Assembly: GCA_014727915.1 (NCBI GenBank)
Contig: WJMO01000009.1
Location: 64,001 to 128,000, forward strand
DNA from: Candidatus Altiarchaeales archaeon
GTDB lineage: Archaea > Altiarchaeota > Altiarchaeia > IMC4 > SCGC-AAA252-I15
Direction of reading: 5' to 3'
Length of the DNA stretch: 64,000 nt
Part shown: piece by piece, positions 3,579-47,291 of the stretch
Position numbering within the stretch: the stretch's first letter is position 1
How the letters are laid out: every line of letters starts with the position of its first letter
The notes under the pieces: model-generated
What the model was told of the DNA's origin: nothing
The model's input: only the letters and a program-made list of their open reading frames with translations
Databases searched by the model: none
Program-made: the position numbers and the translations under genes

Positions 3579-4982
3579 TCACGTTATGCCTGTCTTCCTT
3601 GCTATGAGGCTCCGGCCCATCACGTACATCTTCCTCAGTCCGAACATCCCATGGCGGTATGCCATCTTGAACGGGTAGGTGGGCCTCAGGTAGAACCTTT
3701 TTATTATGTTGTTCCACTCCCTGGTTATCTCGTCGCCTGTCATGCCGCTGTCGTATAGGAGCTTTTTAGCCATGAAGTCGTGGCGGTAGGCCATCCAGTC
3801 GTCGTCCACCAGCCCCTGCCGGTCGAGGAGGTCGTAGAGCCTGCTTCCCGGGTAGGGTGTTATCACTCCCAGGCTGAGCTGGTCGACGTCCAGGTCCAGG
3901 GCGAGCTCCAGCGACTTCCGCTCAGATTCGACCGTGGACCCGGGCAGTCCCATCACGAAGAAAAGCCCGATGTAGAAACCGTAGTCTTTAGCGAGCTTAA
4001 CAGCCTCCCGTATCTGTTCTATGGTCTCGCCCTTGTCTATCCTCTCTAGCACCTTGCCGTCTCCGGATTCCACGCCGAAGAATATGCAGTATACGCCGGC
4101 GTCCCTCATCTTCCGGAACAGTTCCGGAGTCACCCTGTCGGCCCGTATGCCGTTGGGGAAGGCGATTGAGACGTCCCAACCCCTCTCTTTTATGCCGTCG
4201 AATATCCTCCCGGCCCGGTCCATGTCCAGGGTGAACGTGTCGTCGACGATGTGTATCTCCCTGTACCTGTACTTTGATTCCACCAGCTCCTCCACTTCTG
4301 CCAGGACGTTATCCGGGCTACGATCCCTGAACTTGCTGCCGAACGTGGCTTTGCAGCAGAAGATGCACTGGTGTGGGCAGCCCCTGCTGGTTATGATCGA
4401 GGCCATGGGCTTCCGCTTCACCTCCACGGCTTTGGTGTCATATTTGCGAAGGTCGAATATGTCCCTCGCGGGGAAGGGTATGGCGTCCAGGTCTTCTATG
4501 AACGGCCTGTCTCCGTTGCGGACGATTTTTGTCTTTCCCCTGTAGACGACGCCTTTCACGCCCATCATGCTGTCGCCGTCGCTGAGCCGCTGGGCCAGCT
4601 CCTTGATGGTCTCCTCTCCCTCCCCCACCACCCCGTAGTCTATCCACCCGAACTGTTTCAGCGTGTCCTCCGGCAGGGCTGATATGTGGGCTCCGCCCAG
4701 TATTGTCTTAACTCCGGGGTGGGCCTCTTTTATCTTCTTTAGCAGTCCGATGTTGTCGCTGATGTCGAAGGTTCGAGAGGTCGCCAGCACGGCGTCCGCG
4801 CGGGAAATTCCCACCTCATCAACCACTCTGCTGTCCGGGTATCCGTTTACTCTGCCGTCTATGACCTCCACCTCATGTCCCTCCCCTCTGAGAACGCTGG
4901 CCAGGTACCCCACACCCAATGGGAGGTACTGGATTTCGCTCCTGCGTTCTATGGATTTTGGGAGGGCGAAGGCGAATTTCAT
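3579..4982 (-). CDS. B12-binding radical SAM protein
   Basis: PLGVGYLASVL, GGAHISALPE, SRGCPHQCIFC (CxxxCxxC), GVESG, PYPGS. Confidence 0.92.
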   Translation of the reverse strand: MKFAFALPKSIERRSEIQYLPLGVGYLASVLRGEGHEVEVIDGRVNGYPDSRVVDEVGISRADAVLATSRTFDISDNIGLLKKIKEAHPGVKTILGGAHISALPEDTLKQFGWIDYGVVGEGEETIKELAQRLSDGDSMMGVKGVVYRGKTKIVRNGDRPFIEDLDAIPFPARDIFDLRKYDTKAVEVKRKPMASIITSRGCPHQCIFCCKATFGSKFRDRSPDNVLAEVEELVESKYRYREIHIVDDTFTLDMDRAGRIFDGIKERGWDVSIAFPNGIRADRVTPELFRKMRDAGVYCIFFGVESGDGKVLERIDKGETIEQIREAVKLAKDYGFYIGLFFVMGLPGSTVESERKSLELALDLDVDQLSLGVITPYPGSRLYDLLDRQGLVDDDWMAYRHDFMAKKLLYDSGMTGDEITREWNNIIKRFYLRPTYPFKMAYRHGMFGLRKMYVMGRSLIARKTGIT

Positions 4983-6230: not shown

Positions 6231-7244
6231 TCAGTGTCTGGTCCTGCATGCGAACTCCTTTATCACATCCAGGGGGTGGTCTATGAGGAGTGAGGGTTCG
6301 CCGTAGCATGCTATGAAGCAGGTCCGGTCGCATCTGAACTCGTCCCTTTGGAATCCTTCTATGAGCTCCTCGTAGCTGTCGTGCTCCAGGAGGTTCCCGG
6401 ACTTCTCTTTGAGCACCTCGCAGGGGTGGAAGACGTCTCCGTTGCTGAATATCCTGGGTATGATGAAGGGCCTGCACTTGAAGGGCTTGAAGTCCCTTAC
6501 TGTCTCAAGGAAACGGAGGCTCGTGTTTATGGGGTACCCCTCCCTTTTCATCTCTATTATCCGGTCCATTATCCTCTTGTACTCCTCGTTGTCCTTCAGG
6601 TATTCCGGTGCTGCTCCCCTCTCCACAACAGGTCCTATGCTGAGCCCGCAGTTGTTCTCGAACACGAAGCCCGCCACCTCCGACACGTTGTCCATGTTAT
6701 GCTCTCCTATGACGCAGTTGACGTTTATGGTGAAACCCCTCTCATCCTGGAGCTTCGAGTACTTCACGATGTTGTCCATTATCTTCTTCGCCGAGCCTTT
6801 GACGTTCGTGAGCTCGTCGTATCTGTCGTCCACCCTGTCCAGGCTGGTTGACACGATGTCCACATACTCCAATACTTCCTCCTTGCTGTCGAGGAGGCTG
6901 AGGTTGGTGAAGAGTATGATGGGCTTGAACTTGAGCCTCTTTGCCTCCTTCAGTATCTCTATGATGTCCGGCCTCAGCAGCGGCTCCCCACCAGTCAACG
7001 TTATCCCCGGGGTTACCCTCCTTATCTTCCCTAGTATCTCCTTGGTCTCCCCGGTGTTCAGGCCCTTGTCGTTGTTGTCTCGGAAGGCGCAGTAGCCGCA
7101 TCGGAAGTTGCAGTTCCGTGTTATGTAGAAGCCGGAGAGCATGGGCTTGAGGTTCCTCTCGTCCCCCAGCACCTTTATCCTGAACAGGTTCTCCAGATAG
7201 GCTGCCACGGCCTTTAGGGGTATGTCCCTGAAACCGTATCTCAT
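6231..7244 (-). CDS. radical SAM protein with C-terminal Cys-rich (SPASM/twitch-like) region
   Basis: TRNCNFRCGYC, TGGEPLLR, NGDVFHPC..CDRTCFIAC. Confidence 0.88.
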   Translation of the reverse strand: MRYGFRDIPLKAVAAYLENLFRIKVLGDERNLKPMLSGFYITRNCNFRCGYCAFRDNNDKGLNTGETKEILGKIRRVTPGITLTGGEPLLRPDIIEILKEAKRLKFKPIILFTNLSLLDSKEEVLEYVDIVSTSLDRVDDRYDELTNVKGSAKKIMDNIVKYSKLQDERGFTINVNCVIGEHNMDNVSEVAGFVFENNCGLSIGPVVERGAAPEYLKDNEEYKRIMDRIIEMKREGYPINTSLRFLETVRDFKPFKCRPFIIPRIFSNGDVFHPCEVLKEKSGNLLEHDSYEELIEGFQRDEFRCDRTCFIACYGEPSLLIDHPLDVIKEFACRTRH

Positions 7245-7293
7245 CCCTACCTATATTGTCGACAGGATTAAATACCCTCCCCTCCATTATCCT

Positions 7294-7938
7294 ATGATGG
7301 AGTTCAGGACGTCCCTTGCCGTGTCGGCTGCGCTTGTGGTGTTGTCTTTGGCGTCCTCGGGATTCCTATACGGGCAGCTGCCTCATACCATGGCGTCCCA
7401 CTGGAACGCGTCCGGGGAGGTGGACGGCCGCATGGGCCGGGGGGTGGCGGCGTTCATGCTCCCCGCCATACTGGCGGTCCTGCTGGTGTTCTTCGCGGTC
7501 ATACCCCGCATCGACCCGTTGAAGAGGAACATCGAGGAGTTCAAAGGCTACTATGGCGGGTTCATAGTTGTCTTCACGTTGTTCATGATGTTCGTCCACT
7601 TTCACATGCTGCTGTGGAACGTCGGGGTCCGGTTGAGTACGAACGTTGTGGTGCCCGCTGGCGTCGGTCTTCTGTTCATCTACATAGGCTACCTGCTGCC
7701 TCACACGAGGAGGAACTGGTTCATAGGGGTGCGCACGCCCTGGACCCTATCCGATGACCGGGTCTGGGAGAAGACGCACAGGGTCGGGGGAAAGCTCTTC
7801 ACAGCATCCGGGTTAGTTGCCTTGGCGGGCGCCCTGGTGTCGGACCAGGCGGTGGCCTTCATCATAGTCCCGGTCCTGGCCTCAGCCGCATACCTCATAC
7901 TATACAGTTACCTGGAATACAGGAAACTTGGGAAGTAG
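7294..7938 (+). CDS. SdpI/DUF1648 family immunity membrane protein
   Basis: LPHTMASHWNASGEVDG and RNWFIGVRTPWTLSDDRVWEKTHR signatures. Confidence 0.9.
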   Translation: MMEFRTSLAVSAALVVLSLASSGFLYGQLPHTMASHWNASGEVDGRMGRGVAAFMLPAILAVLLVFFAVIPRIDPLKRNIEEFKGYYGGFIVVFTLFMMFVHFHMLLWNVGVRLSTNVVVPAGVGLLFIYIGYLLPHTRRNWFIGVRTPWTLSDDRVWEKTHRVGGKLFTASGLVALAGALVSDQAVAFIIVPVLASAAYLILYSYLEYRKLGK

Positions 7939-10804: not shown

Positions 10805-11202
10805 TCTCCTTTCACCTTCATTACTGCTAGCACTATGAAGTATGTGGCACATGACAGTAGCAGGACGGCGGTGGCTCCGTGCCGTGGCATCATGCCTGGT
10901 ATGTCGTCTATGAACCACCCGACTATGAGGCAGAGGTAGATGGTTATCATCCACGTGTAATACCCTGCCTTGTGGACTATCTTCACGGTCATCTCATCCC
11001 GCAACGGCTCTCCTTTCTTCATGCTGTCCCACATGCCCAACACCACCACCAAACCTATCAACACTATCGTGAACGCAATCCCGATACCGCCCACTTCCAC
11101 CATGTCCAGCGGCCACGCACTAACCGCATACAAGCCCAGGCTGGCGGAAACCGCCGCCACCAAAGCCAAAACCAACACAATCCTCAACCTCACATCCATC
11201 AT
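10801..11202 (-). CDS. DUF2178-like membrane protein
   Basis: 4 TM; DEMTVKIVHKAGYYTW. Confidence 0.75.
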   Translation of the reverse strand: MMDVRLRIVLVLALVAAVSASLGLYAVSAWPLDMVEVGGIGIAFTIVLIGLVVVLGMWDSMKKGEPLRDEMTVKIVHKAGYYTWMITIYLCLIVGWFIDDIPGMMPRHGATAVLLLSCATYFIVLAVMKVKGE

Positions 11203-11216
11203 CTACACCTCACGAA

Positions 11217-11269
11217 TGTTAACTAAATCAAACAATATGTTAGAAATAATTAACATACGGGTTTAAATA
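11217..11269 (-). promoter_or_regulatory. two TGTT-N10-AACA operator palindromes plus TATA box of the DUF2178-XRE operon
   Basis: Sites at 11217-11234 and 11238-11255 (21 bp apart); minus-strand TATTTAAA at 11262-11269. Confidence 0.65.
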
Positions 11270-11378
11270 CTTAACGTTGGTGTCTCTAATACATGTAAAT
11301 GGTCTTTACGGATGTATATTGTACACTAGTGCCAACTTTTTTATATGTGTAGCGCCTATTTCTTCATAGAATAACCAC

Positions 11379-11420
11379 CCCATCCTTAGCTGGCACTATC
11401 ACACGCCAGCTAACGATGGG
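11379..11420 (+). promoter_or_regulatory. stem-loop in probable 5' UTR of the NYN gene
   Basis: CCCATC-C-TTAGCTGGC / GCCAGCTAA-C-GATGGG: 15 bp, one C-C mismatch, 10-nt loop, ends 12 nt before ATG. Confidence 0.6.
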
Positions 11421-11432
11421 TCCAAAAATTAA

Positions 11433-12014
11433 ATGACTAGAGTAATTGTGTTCATTGATGGTAGTAACTTCTATCACACCTGCAAAAACCACCTTGGCAC
11501 CTCAGATATTGAGTTCCGTGCGTTCTGTGATAAACTAGCAGAGAATAACACCATTGTAGAAATTGGGTATTATACTGCTCCAGTTAGTCAACAGACTTTC
11601 CCTGAACGATATCAAACCCAACAAAAATTCTTTTCTAGGATTCGTAAAATACCTCATCTTAAACTCATACTTGGGAAGCTCAGACCACGGAATATAACTT
11701 GTCCTCGGTGTCGTAAGATCATTCCACTATGTCCTGAATGCAAGCGTAAAATTGTATCTCATGTGGAGAAGAAAACAGATGTTAATTTTGCAGTGGATAT
11801 GGTGGCTTTGGCTTTTGAGGATAAATATGACACTGGTATAATAGTCACAGGAGATGGAGATTTCACCAGCGCGGTGAAACTAGCTCAGAAGCTAAATAAG
11901 AAGATAATTATTGCTCATTTTGCCAGGGGCTACTCGTCAGAGCTCAATCAAACTTGCGACAGTGAAATCATCTTAGATGCTGACTACATGGAGGGATGCT
12001 ATCTCGACTACTAA
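11433..12014 (+). CDS. NYN (LabA/DUF88, PIN-like) ribonuclease with Zn-ribbon insert
   Basis: VFIDGSNFY, EKKTDV, VTGDGDF; CPRC..CPEC insert; AT-rich relative to neighbours. Confidence 0.92.
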   Translation: MTRVIVFIDGSNFYHTCKNHLGTSDIEFRAFCDKLAENNTIVEIGYYTAPVSQQTFPERYQTQQKFFSRIRKIPHLKLILGKLRPRNITCPRCRKIIPLCPECKRKIVSHVEKKTDVNFAVDMVALAFEDKYDTGIIVTGDGDFTSAVKLAQKLNKKIIIAHFARGYSSELNQTCDSEIILDADYMEGCYLDY

Positions 12015-43842: not shown

Positions 43843-44030
43843 ATATCTATAAAAAATCCGTTTTTTTCCCACAATAGTTTTGAAAGCTCCTTGATGCCAA
43901 CCTAAAACGCTCCTCCACACTCACAAAAAAACCCATAAACAGGAAGTTCACAAACCATCTAAAAAAACTCCGCCATAGAGCGCCCGAAAACTAAAAAACG
44001 ATCAAAAAGACCGCAAAACCCTTGTTAATT

Positions 44031-44716
44031 GGAAGTTGAAAAAGTGCGCCTATGGGATATTTTATATAGGTAATAACATCTTAAGAAAATATGGAAATGG
44101 GAAAAAGGCTATATGTGACTAATAGAAAACAATGGCGTTCATGGCTCGCTAAAAACCATAACAAAGAAAAAGAAATCTGGCTCGTTTATTATAGAAAATC
44201 GTCTGGCCAAAAAAGGATTCCTTACAATGATGCCGTTGAAGAGGCGCTTTGTTATGGTTGGATAGACAGCACTTTGAAACGTATGGATGAAAATAGTTTT
44301 GCTCAAAGATTTACTCCCAGAAGACCAAATAGTGTGCTCTCCCAAACCAACAAAGAACGTATCCACAGACTTATTGAAGAAAAGAAAATGACCGTTAAAG
44401 GTCTCAATGCTGTTAGGCATGCGTTTGATGAATCATCAAAAAATCCAAAATGCATAATCAAAGGTGATATTCTCAGATCATTAAAGGAAGATAAAACAAC
44501 CTGGGAGAACTTCCGGAAATTCCCCGAGTCATACAAGCGTATCCGTATAGGGTGGATAGAAGGGGCCAGAACTCGCCCTGAAATCTTTAAGAAGAGGCTA
44601 GAATATTTTCTTAAGATGACTGCAAAGAATAAAAGATATGGTATGGTGCAGTAATAGCTTAATGACGGCGCACTTTTCCAACTTCCTCGGCTTACGCCTC
44701 GAACTCTAGCGAGGAA
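44031..44716. mobile_element. putative single-gene cassette bounded by 20-bp inverted repeats and GGAA direct repeats
   Basis: GGAAGTTGAAAAAGTGCGCC (44031-44050) / GGCGCACTTTTCCAACTTCC (44667-44686), 19/20 match; low-GC cargo gene. Confidence 0.6.
44091..44654 (+). CDS. YdeI/OmpD-associated (bacteriocin-protection) family protein
   Basis: WRSWLAKNH, AVEEALCYGWIDS, RFTPRRPNS, WIEGARTRPE; AT-rich. Confidence 0.92.
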   Translation: MEMGKRLYVTNRKQWRSWLAKNHNKEKEIWLVYYRKSSGQKRIPYNDAVEEALCYGWIDSTLKRMDENSFAQRFTPRRPNSVLSQTNKERIHRLIEEKKMTVKGLNAVRHAFDESSKNPKCIIKGDILRSLKEDKTTWENFRKFPESYKRIRIGWIEGARTRPEIFKKRLEYFLKMTAKNKRYGMVQ

Positions 44717-44725
44717 ACTATCAGC

Positions 44726-44805
44726 ACCTAACCGGCAATTCCTAACGTAATTGTCCGAATCGCCTCCTTCCAGTCGGCGACTCCGTTTACCCGCACTTGT
44801 TATCT
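44726..44805 (+). other. attC-like multi-hairpin remnant
   Basis: ACCTAAC (R''-like), hairpins CGGCAATT/AATTGTCCG and TCGCC/GGCGA, GTTATCT (imperfect R'). Confidence 0.4.
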
Positions 44806-44929
44806 GGCATGCCGGCGGTATTTCTTATTGGTATATGCGTGATCTCAAAGACCGTTTCCAGCATGCTTGCTGAAGAAGTGAAGTGATGCTTGTTAGGGGC
44901 TTCGAGCGGCTGTTTGCCCCCGTTCGTTT

Positions 44930-45352
44930 TCAGATGCCTTTGGGGTATTTTCCGTCTGATTGCATCAGGAGGAAGAGTTTCATCTCGAGGTTCCTCTCTC
45001 CTTCCCCTGGTAATCTTTCGTTGGGGACTATGTTGATCTTGTTGCGGGGGTTGCCTTTCTCGTTGTTGCCCTGGTTGGTGAAGAACCCTTCTATCTCGTC
45101 CCTTTTTACTCTGTTTAGATTGGTTACTATTGTGTAGGTGTTCGTACCGGTTTCAGAATCGCTGCTCTTCCCTACTACTACCATGGAATTAAGCACTTCA
45201 CTGGGTATGCCCAGTTTCCCCCCCCTTTCAGCTATGTCTTTTTCGTAAGAGAATAAGCCCATCTGCTCCGGCTTTCCGGTTTCGACGATCCTCCTGGCCA
45301 TGCCCTGTACTTCCGGCGGGTTGTCTTCCATCCTCCGTTTGAAAACATCCAT
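44930..45352 (-). CDS. hypothetical protein
   Basis: 140-aa ORF with AGGTGA upstream of the ATG. Confidence 0.6.
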   Translation of the reverse strand: MDVFKRRMEDNPPEVQGMARRIVETGKPEQMGLFSYEKDIAERGGKLGIPSEVLNSMVVVGKSSDSETGTNTYTIVTNLNRVKRDEIEGFFTNQGNNEKGNPRNKINIVPNERLPGEGERNLEMKLFLLMQSDGKYPKGI

Positions 45353-45918: not shown

Positions 45919-47256
45919 TCACACGCTGTGCCATCCGCCCTCTGCCTGCTCTATGCCCGGGTGGGTGAGGGTTATACTGTCACCGTCTCCCTCGTATCTT
46001 ACTATGTTGTTGTTGGATTGGCCCAGGCGAATTGTGACGGTGTCTCCGGGCTTCTCCAAGGGCTCTACGTTGTTGAATGTTATGTAAGCCAGCTTCTCGC
46101 CGCAGTCGCATTCACCAGGCTCTGGGCAACGATAGGCTAGCGAGGACCCTATGTTCCTAGTCCTACCGTACTTGTCCTCTATGACCTCGAAGTGGCCTCT
46201 TGATGATTCCCCGTCCGACTTGTTGAATAACATGGTTTTATCGTATGCGCTGCGCGGCCTTTCCATGCAGGCCAGGCTCCTGTTATCAAGGGATTTGAAG
46301 TACCACCTGCAGATGTAGTGCAGTTTAGCGTTGTATCTGCTGTCCCTATGCCACATGCACTCCCTCTCCGCAACCTGGAGTAGGGGCGTTTCCGGTTCGA
46401 TCAGTGGTTTAGGCAGGCATTTGAAGTGTCTTACCATCTTCACGTAATGCCTGTTGGTGTAGGTGTTTATAGTCTCCTTGTTATCCCAGTTTATCACTAT
46501 GTACCCGTAGCCCAGCCTGAAGTGGACCTCGATCTTGGCGTCACCGGGGCTCTCGCACCGCATGTGATTTATGTCAAGCACGTAGGAGCCGTCTATTGAA
46601 GTGTACGGTTCTTTCTCCCATCCCAGATTCTTGAGCGGGGAGCCCTGTCCCTTGAAGATGCCCCACACCTGGATGCTCGGCGCGACAAGCTGGTATAGCA
46701 TGTCTGGTATATACATCCTGTCCGATTTTTTCATGATCTCCTCCCGGTCCACAGTCACTTTCAGCTTCGCGTCCACCGTCTCCCCCTCAAGGGTATCCCC
46801 AGCATCCAGGTCGAGGTTGAAGAAGCCGTCGGAAAAATTCCCGAGACCCTCGACTATGAGGTCGCTGAAATGGCCAAGGGTTAAAGTGGCTTTCAACCTG
46901 TCATCGTCTATGGTGATGTATGCATCTTCCACAGCCTCCACATTATCCTCCGATATCGTGTAGAAAACCGGAAGACGGCCGGTGTATGCTCCGAGGTCGA
47001 CTGTCAGGTTAACGGGTTTTTCGAACTTCAGCCCGTCGGGCTGCAGACGGTAGACCCTCCTGCTGCCTGACTCCACTAGTTCAACGCTAAGGCCGTTCGA
47101 TCCCATTCCGTCAGGCATGGCGCCGGCGGGTATGTCCAACCGCGCATCCGGGAATGTAAGGGAGGCGTCCTCAGTGTCCGAGGGTTCCTTGTCTATGCTT
47201 TGGGGTCCCTGGCAGAGGCACCCTGAGACCAGGACCATTAACACAAGCCATCGCAT
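45919..47256 (-). CDS. secreted/lipoprotein-like protein with ZU5-like N-terminal domain
   Basis: Signal ending VSGC; LDIPAGA..LQPDGLKFEKPV..LGHFS. Confidence 0.6.
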   Translation of the reverse strand: MRWLVLMVLVSGCLCQGPQSIDKEPSDTEDASLTFPDARLDIPAGAMPDGMGSNGLSVELVESGSRRVYRLQPDGLKFEKPVNLTVDLGAYTGRLPVFYTISEDNVEAVEDAYITIDDDRLKATLTLGHFSDLIVEGLGNFSDGFFNLDLDAGDTLEGETVDAKLKVTVDREEIMKKSDRMYIPDMLYQLVAPSIQVWGIFKGQGSPLKNLGWEKEPYTSIDGSYVLDINHMRCESPGDAKIEVHFRLGYGYIVINWDNKETINTYTNRHYVKMVRHFKCLPKPLIEPETPLLQVAERECMWHRDSRYNAKLHYICRWYFKSLDNRSLACMERPRSAYDKTMLFNKSDGESSRGHFEVIEDKYGRTRNIGSSLAYRCPEPGECDCGEKLAYITFNNVEPLEKPGDTVTIRLGQSNNNIVRYEGDGDSITLTHPGIEQAEGGWHSV

Positions 47257-47291
47257 AAAAAAGAATAACGGGAGAAACATTAAAAATCAGT

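Follow-up and report, generated by a model that had tools for sequence, protein, structure and literature searches.

The stretch of DNA analyzed here, hereafter the window, comprises 64,000 nucleotides (nt) from a Candidatus Altiarchaeales archaeon (assembly GCA_014727915.1, contig WJMO01000009.1, positions 64,001 to 128,000 of the forward strand). It contains a gene of the OmdA/YdeI family, low in guanine plus cytosine (GC), which is enclosed by two nested inverted repeats and followed by a folded site resembling the attC sites of integrons. On the basis of comparisons with related loci, we interpret the segment ~44025-44799 as a single cassette belonging to an integron-like system that is widespread among DPANN archaea (Woesearchaeota/Nanoarchaeia) and give this reading a probability of about 0.7. 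The window copy is most likely stranded and no longer mobile. The features of the locus are listed below in window positions, including the open reading frame (ORF) and its length in amino acids (aa); genomes, contigs and loci used for comparison carry the prefixes G, C and L.

44024..44030, plus strand: R'-type core GTTAATT, the left cassette boundary; other copies and cassettes read G/A-TTA..T.CAAT there
44031..44050, plus strand: outer inverted repeat, left arm, cassette-specific (19/20 complementarity)
44060..44069, plus strand: TATA-box-like TTTTATATAG, ~22-31 nt upstream of the ATG (from sequence; kept in other copies)
44077..44092, plus strand: inner inverted repeat (perfect, 16 nt), left arm, overlapping the start codon (from pairing)
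44091..44654, plus strand: OmdA/YdeI-family ORF, 187 aa, the cargo, GC 0.381 (PF13376 match)
44603..44618, plus strand: inner inverted repeat, right arm, within the coding sequence (EYFLKM; from pairing)
44667..44686, plus strand: outer inverted repeat, right arm (19/20 complementarity)
44680..44716, plus strand: junction leader, AACTTCCTCGG and then a small CCTCG/CGAGG hairpin, overlapping the end of the right arm (similar leaders elsewhere)
44715..44805, plus strand: decayed long-form attC-like site, host-like GC of 0.525 (conserved in G008, G019, G012)
44718-44722, plus strand: R''-equivalent CTATC, ATAAC in relatives (from alignment to relatives)
44724-44734, plus strand: L''-equivalent
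44734-44756 and 44760-44780, plus strand: two hairpins of the site (compensatory changes in relatives)
44784-44794, plus strand: L'-equivalent
44799-44805, plus strand: R' GTTATCT, the right boundary, with the putative right exchange point at 44799^44800

A low-GC gene within two nested inverted repeats

The two arms of the outer repeat, 44031-44050 and 44667-44686, are complementary at 19 of 20 positions. Allowing up to three mismatches, the arm sequence occurs in the window at these two places alone, and no match was found in any of 100 shuffles. A search of the 1.81-Mb genome (90.6% complete) at the same threshold returned only the window pair, with 0 and 1 mismatches, and a control pattern likewise gave 1+1. 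The inner repeat takes in the first two bases of the ATG on its left side and encodes EYFLKM on its right side. It is kept at 14-16 of 16 positions in 17 of the 26 other gene copies listed, with uncompensated changes. The possibility that the 3' end of the gene had undergone one long, degenerate inverted duplication was rejected, as the stretches between outer and inner arms are dissimilar (score -5.6 vs -2.3 ± 1.9 for shuffles).

The encoded protein matches PF13376 (OmdA) with 40.3 bits, against a Pfam gathering cut-off of 25.6 bits, and an E-value of 3e-10. The match extends over residues 123-180 only, i.e. the C-terminal 58. An initial annotation of the locus, made from the sequence alone, spoke of a protection gene; this is merely the name of the Pfam family. 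The TATA-box-like element upstream is probably the cassette's own archaeal promoter and would give a leaderless or short-leader mRNA. GC content is 0.375 across 44025-44686 and 0.381 in the ORF, compared with 0.543 for the genome. It switches from 0.375 to 0.525 at 44687, the latter value being that of the site part behind the right arm.

Homologous copies end at the arms

The OmdA gene was found in seven of the 41 genomes searched, its own included, and is missing from the sole other genome of the genus. Its closest homologues, with 76-89% amino acid identity, are in metagenome-assembled genomes (MAGs) of Woesearchaeota, Nanoarchaeia and Pacearchaeota, as well as on metagenome contigs. DNA identity with these copies is 74-90%; it starts at 44023-44040 and runs to 44685-44702, so that both limits lie at the arms. 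Together with the GC switch at 44687, these limits support the earlier suggestion that the foreign DNA ends near the arms. The flanks of the homologous copies are mutually unrelated and include different archaeal housekeeping genes such as those for NAC, Nre, PGK, ribosomal proteins and a DEAD helicase.

We collected 160 homologous loci, 153 of which had both flanks readable. Within three mismatches of the consensus, the left arm is present at 21 of these 153 loci, the right arm at 15 and both at 14, whereas the reversed control gave 0. In 49 genomes of the order, the outer arm gave one match at three mismatches vs 15 for the control.

Cassette arrays in DPANN archaea

Arrays of cassettes, all pointing in one direction, were recognized at L035, L126, L134, L036 and G050:C6. 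The last of these, read as its reverse complement, is headed by a divergently transcribed gene for a 283-aa tyrosine recombinase. An attI-like sequence, GTTAAGTGAAAT, lies ~250 nt from this gene and is followed by at least 13 cassettes. Their cargo comprises an epimerase, a deaminase, a methyltransferase, gene pairs the size of toxin-antitoxin systems, unknowns and an OmdA gene. Seven junctions of the array fit exactly a strict grammar consisting of TAAC, 1 nt, a box of at least 9 nt, a variable part of 90-140 nt, the exact complement of the box, 3 nt and GTTA. The box measures 11 nt at these junctions, GTTA is followed by ..T.CAAT, and a C/T-rich leader of ~50 nt starting with ACT(C/T)TTCG precedes TAAC.

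The ends of the cassettes covary. In 6/6 contiguous cassettes, the ten bases of the left end, counted from G^TTA (the caret marking the exchange point), complement the cassette's own TAAC box at 9-10 of 10 positions; the in-situ neighbour of the box complements it at only 4-8 of 10. A seventh cassette, with its left site at 6545 in G050:C6, gives 9/10 by eye, and the same match between own end and own box was seen by eye in L031, L126 and L035. As each left end complements the TAAC box of its own cassette and not that of the neighbour, we place the exchange at G^TT. Such covariation of own R' and own R'' is the signature of integron cassettes.

The window copy has the same layout at both ends. 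On the left, GTTAATT is followed directly by the arm, matching the left-end feature of DPANN-type arrays (G^TTA..T.CAAT plus arm). On the right, the arm is followed by the AACTTCCTCGG leader and the decayed long-form site, matching the right-end feature. Judged from the complementarity of own R'' and own R' in the arrays, the crossover in the window copy would fall between G44024 and T44025. In its loose form, the left-end motif ([GA]TTA..T..[CT]AAT) is unspecific, with 135 observed vs 149 in shuffles of 1.16 Mb; it was used only as strand-biased clusters within loci.

About half of the cassettes have perfect private terminal repeats of 10-15 base pairs (bp), compared with the 20-nt outer repeat in the window. 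One arm lies directly after ..CAAT and the other directly before the leader. We counted these repeats in 22 cassettes from five loci by comparing the 45 nt after ..CAAT with the 300 nt that precede the next site. Paired with themselves, 12 of the 22 cassettes had a perfect terminal inverted repeat of at least 10 nt, compared with 21 of 462 non-self pairings, many of the latter being duplicate cassettes; the count takes in exact matches only, includes the OmdA cassette four times and merges two cassettes in one row. One large cassette of L126 has two nested repeats, of 13 and 14 bp, as in the window.

These private repeats bear on a different explanation of the arms, in which they are control elements of the gene (operator, terminator or pairing of mRNA ends) and the gene has spread by ordinary horizontal transfer, with no role for the repeats in recombination. 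A T-run in the right arm comes after the stop codon, the start codon is overlapped by the inner repeat, and arms persist around homologues of 66-68% amino acid identity that have no site. However, unrelated cassettes of the same arrays have repeats of their own at equal junction positions, and these show no common T-run pattern. The left arm also lies upstream of the likely TATA box, hence outside the mRNA. We consider it quite improbable that the repeats are control elements. A terminator reading of the arms was rejected after inspection by eye, the arms of other cassettes having no consistent T-run orientation.

Further cassettes of the G050:C6 array (L207, positions of the reverse complement) were recorded. 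The same cassette of two small genes (~96/81 aa, the size of a toxin-antitoxin pair) stands twice in the array, at 6545-7457 and 11156-11931, with nearly identical arms, TCAGAAAAAACGTC vs TCAGAAAAAACATC. Although it contains no ORF, a 277-nt cassette (3642-3919) retains a short terminal repeat of its own, TTTTTTGC/GCAAAAAA, together with a complete long-form site.

The site behind the cargo

The site behind the cargo is 79-86% conserved over 42-85 nt in three genomes of the host family (G008, G019 and G012), in which the OmdA gene does not stand beside it. Both of its internal hairpins show compensatory changes among these genomes. In the window, the TAAC box reads TATC and box pairing is weakened; the R' cores read GTTATCT and GTTAATT, the R'' position reads CTATC, and the site fails the strict grammar. 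Leaders resembling 44680-44716 come after the right arm of other cassettes, and G012 has a very similar leader without the OmdA gene. A structured RNA at 44686-44810 was considered and rejected, as searches returned neither an Rfam match (E up to 1) nor a tRNA. The pairs do covary, but a DNA recombination site of the kind also present at array junctions accounts better for the element. A second attC-like element of the host-family type lies inverted ~1.1 kb off in G008 (L023, G008:C1, 213-233 / 1319-1339; 21 nt, 86% complementary).

These comparisons allow the ends of the cassette to be reassessed. The initial annotation proposed a 682-bp circle formed by exchange at GGAA, which would rebuild a 23-bp hairpin with an AAC/GTT core. 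Much of its description stands. The 19/20 inverted repeats do enclose a low-GC YdeI-family gene, as seen from the arms, the OmdA match and the GC of 0.375 vs 0.543; the right end reads TCG-20 nt-CGA-GGAA; and joining at GGAA gives 682 bp, with the joined ends folding into the proposed hairpin at -24.1 kcal/mol (DNA parameters). We also retain its general idea of a horizontally acquired, single-gene, integron-like cassette of non-canonical layout whose two ends pair and rebuild a hairpin once circularized.

The exchange point at GGAA, in contrast, is not supported. Other copies have GCAATTG in place of the window's GGAAGTTG, and the GGAAG that stands where they have GCAAT is peculiar to the window copy, so the 4-nt GGAA direct repeat carries no weight. 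The second GGAA falls within the leader common to G012, and the TCG...CGA hairpin, proposed as a cassette-specific site, is part of this conserved leader and present in G012 without the gene. Covariation in the related arrays instead puts the exchange at G^TT, with predicted left and right points of 44024^44025 and 44799^44800 in the window copy. The proposed empty site had no match with up to two mismatches in the 49 genomes of the order, and at three mismatches there were 8 matches vs 11 for the control. A circle formed at GGAA is thus very improbable, even though its arithmetic and fold hold.

Recombinases and mobilizing enzymes

The 283-aa recombinase of G050 scores 225 bits against XerA_Arch (cut-off 220) and 213 bits against the integron-integrase model (cut-off 265). 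Among solved structures, the nearest to it is that of the Vibrio integron integrase VchIntIA (2a3v), with which it aligns in two blocks. It has 17 residues where IntI4 has 59, i.e. ~42 fewer, and is without the IntI-specific insert. We take the missing residues to be the domain specific to IntI, which makes contact with flipped-out bases of attC. The split integrase match recurred in each of the five array-related genomes searched, never above the cut-off. At L126, a truncated PF00589 gene lies beside an insertion sequence (IS) transposase, ~390 nt before the first site.

The properties of the enzyme and its sites are relevant to the possibility of an ordinary integron cassette with a classical attC, in which the window copy would be a lone attC or a remnant cluster of attC sites lacking an integrase (CALIN), moved by a classical IntI. 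The TAAC/GTTA cores, the exchange at G^TT and the presence of a divergent tyrosine recombinase with the arrays are integron-like and agree with this possibility. In addition, Data S1 of Ghaly et al. 2022 (PMC9668308) includes Woesearchaeales/Pacearchaeales MAGs with 2-12 attCs and no IntI. Yet the sites described here, with spacers of 1 nt and 3 nt, are accompanied by a ~50-nt leader and by an outer stem specific to the cassette, and the array recombinase has no IntI-specific insert and does not reach the IntI cut-off. A classical integron origin is therefore considered improbable.

The window's own genome gave no match above the cut-off for TIGR02249 (integron integrase). Its PF00589 matches are confined to contigs C3 and C4 and the window is on C6, which agrees with the first report that no recombinase is nearby. 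The suggestion of mobilization by an HUH enzyme fares less well: PF01797 (Y1, HUH) is missing from this genome (0/1; 90.6% complete) and occurs in one of four array-bearing genomes, G050 being without it. The same data speak to a non-autonomous terminal inverted repeat (TIR) transposon, such as a miniature inverted-repeat transposable element (MITE) with cargo, or an IS200/IS605-type single-strand element, with the transposase acting in trans. Such an element would have terminal inverted repeats around a single gene without its own enzyme, as observed. The repeats vary by cassette, however, and could not all be recognized by one transposase. The arms are not flanked by a target duplication, and the genome has only a single copy. 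Of five genomes searched for the Y1 family, one was positive; G050, the genome with the best array, was not. We give a transposon hardly any credence.

Two observations on other recombinase genes were made. In L126 (2231-4543), a 187-aa ORF for a tyrosine recombinase, comprising only the catalytic domain and located at the head of the array, has an IS-type DDE transposase gene immediately upstream, and it looks as though the recombinase was truncated by IS insertion. The window's own genome has paralogous tyrosine recombinases of 394 and 403 aa at G000:C4 (L112:1219-2403, minus strand) and G000:C3 (L113:1192-2403, minus strand), respectively. Both have a C-terminal CxxC...CxxC zinc ribbon and score far below every NCBIfam cut-off, and one adjoins a Vsr-like small ORF. 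They may mark integrated elements.

Mobility of the window copy

We propose that the cassette would leave as a circle by exchange at G^TT, its two ends together restoring the site. Within this circle, or in a single strand of DNA, the private arms would pair into a stem acting as a clamp that separates leader and site from the cargo. The fold of the joined window ends supports this role: a 20-bp outer stem encloses the site, with -30 to -36 kcal/mol vs -16.3 ± 3.0 for shuffles. In this reading, the window cassette was acquired horizontally by an archaeon of 54% GC that has no array, matching recombinase or second site. The cargo and arms are foreign, and the site behind them is of the host-family type with its TAAC box lost.

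The window copy is probably immobile because it is alone, with no array, integron integrase or second site. A BLAST search of its own genome for a second such site found only the window's own copy, and a scan of the genome with the strict grammar gave six hits vs four in the control. An nhmmer profile built from seven G050 sites gave a best E-value of 6.8 in this genome; it is a weak probe, as the window's own site was missed too.

Several observations weigh against the proposed cassette. No circle, empty site or excision joint was seen; the only two public runs that contain 4-5% of the sampled words, both from one study, show relatives of the cassette as contigs and no joint, and at 85% likeness these runs cover 44036-44693 as short contigs of relatives. 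A Xer/IntI-like recombinase gene adjoins the first cassette in two arrays, and the link between enzyme and cassettes rests on those two. The outer arms are retained without a site behind them in L041, L045 and L135 (66-68% amino acid identity), and the arms may therefore serve the gene rather than mobility. Arms also decay among copies of the OmdA cassette without compensatory change, so resident copies show no visible selection for pairing. A simple site-by-site insertion would have left the host-type site upstream of the cargo, whereas in the window it lies downstream.

Site type and gene relatedness are also at odds. The OmdA cargo and its arms are followed by at least four unrelated site types. 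Between the window and L031, gene identity is 0.88 and the site score of 18 equals the shuffle maximum; between L031 and L134, gene identity is 0.79 and the site score 48. A site type of the form ..CTCGACCACG.TGC.CTCTCGCC.. is common to copies down to 0.75 gene identity, while closer copies, the window among them, have unrelated sites, with the break right after the arm and leader. This discordance is not as predicted for a cassette that always travels with its own site. Either the sites have been replaced or homogenized within genomes, or the repeat-bounded module is itself exchangeable.

If the module were exchangeable, the moving unit would be the cargo with its arms (~44031-44686) and not the cassette with its site. 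It would be swapped between the ..CAAT and ACTTCTTCG.. flanks, either through a step that depends on a hairpin or cruciform or through homologous exchange, and the sites would stay typical of each genome. Homology among the copies does end at the arms and leader, the arms in arrays always abut the same conserved flanks, and site type is discordant with gene relatedness. The window module moreover has a GC of 0.375, while its site has 0.525 and relatives in the host family. Against this, the covariation of R' and R'' shows whole cassettes, sites included, to be exchanged at G^TT. The conserved flanks are ~11-12 nt, short for homologous exchange, and ..CAAT joined directly to ACTTCTTCG.. was not seen in the junctions inspected, no scan having been aimed at it. 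It is doubtful that the module alone moves. Only tentatively would we regard it as a second, separate exchange unit, pluggable before whichever junction site a genome uses. A cassette of an integron-like system, exchanged at G^TT, remains the preferred reading.

Surroundings of the cassette

The cassette lies downstream of proS. In the proS loci of 11 relatives, the upstream AI-2E/proS pair is kept in five. The four downstream window genes sought are all missing from the ~1.4 kb next to proS in these relatives, and synteny yields no empty site. In the sole other genome of the genus, proS is followed by a PGI gene. Two downstream ORFs of the window, 44930-45352 (minus strand, 140 aa) and 45919-47280 (minus strand, 453 aa), have no Pfam match. 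As both are absent within ~1.4 kb of proS in the 11 relatives, the whole stretch after proS may be variable.

A direct repeat links the left arm to the spacer upstream, with GGAAGTTCACAAA at 43942-43954 and GGAAGTTGAAAAA at 44031-44043 (85%). The upstream copy comes after CATAAACA, a sequence like that of a decayed TAAC box, and may be the relic of an older site in the A-rich spacer after proS (38.5% GC).

Comparison with known systems

Integrons are the textbook bacterial device for gene capture, for which the origin of cassettes and the likeness of sites within a genome are still open questions. The DPANN system keeps the logic of integrons in its arrays, folded sites and G^TT exchange. It differs in three respects: a Xer-like enzyme without the IntI insert, the grammar of the sites, and a private stem split between the two ends. 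The window would represent a cassette that crossed from low-GC DPANN-type archaea into an archaeon of 54% GC, with the break exactly at the private stem. If it were the repeat-bounded module that moves, this would explain why the same gene stands before at least four unrelated site types and why the window has a host-type site. It would also provide a natural route for coupling arbitrary genes to genome-specific recombination sites, and so bear on how integron cassettes are made and why sites in one genome look alike. Two questions become testable: which enzyme recombines the sites, and what purpose the private stem serves.

As in classical integrons, the arrays are one-directional and mostly of single genes, with a tyrosine recombinase gene at the head. 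The folded sites have ..AAC/GTT.. cores, and exchange at G^TT makes the first bases of a cassette complement its own site. This complementarity is present in relatives (6/6 contiguous cassettes), whereas R'' of the window copy has decayed. The core consensus of classical attC is RYYYAAC/GTTRRRY. Classical attC sites measure 57-141 nt, have the classical box spacing and carry both hairpin arms at the 3' end of the cassette; the sites here have spacers of 1 and 3 nt. Unlike classical integrons, the system has a ~50-nt leader before the site, a conserved ..T.CAAT after GTTA, a recombinase without the IntI-specific insert and cassettes with their own promoter-like TATA box. Many of its cassettes also have a private terminal inverted repeat split between the two ends, a further difference from classical integron cassettes.

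Two Xer-based systems are also comparable. CTX phage integrates through XerCD at dif by means of a site formed only when a single strand folds into a hairpin. It likewise combines a Xer-type recombinase with a folded site, but is a phage genome without arrays or cassette-specific stems. The pdif modules of Acinetobacter plasmids are small gene modules bounded by Xer-type sites, found in many contexts and without an enzyme gene of their own. Their inverted elements are the conserved Xer sites themselves, while the repeats described here differ in each cassette.

The window copy itself departs from the DPANN-type arrays in being a single cassette, with no array or adjoining Xer-type recombinase. 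It is distinguished from TIR transposons and MITEs by having no shared terminal repeats, target-site duplication or multiple copies, and its genome is distinguished from those with IS200/IS605 elements by having no Y1 transposase. Its cargo belongs with the OmdA family through the C-terminal 58 residues, for which bacteriocin protection is a family name only.

Integrons have been described in archaea, including Nanoarchaeota, as cassette arrays in MAGs that mostly lack an IntI gene (Ghaly et al. 2022, PMC9668308). According to that source, archaeal IntIs keep the IntI-specific domain, and the nine archaeal attCs of its Data S9 are classical, with lengths of 59-97 nt and ..TAAC-AA.T.. spacing. 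Cassette-specific terminal repeats are not mentioned in the parts of it consulted. Neither these repeats nor archaeal Xer-type cassette arrays were found described in the literature surveyed, mostly titles and the beginnings of abstracts. Compared with the archaeal integrons in these parts of PMC9668308, the system described here shares the idea of the array and differs in its sites, enzyme and private stems.

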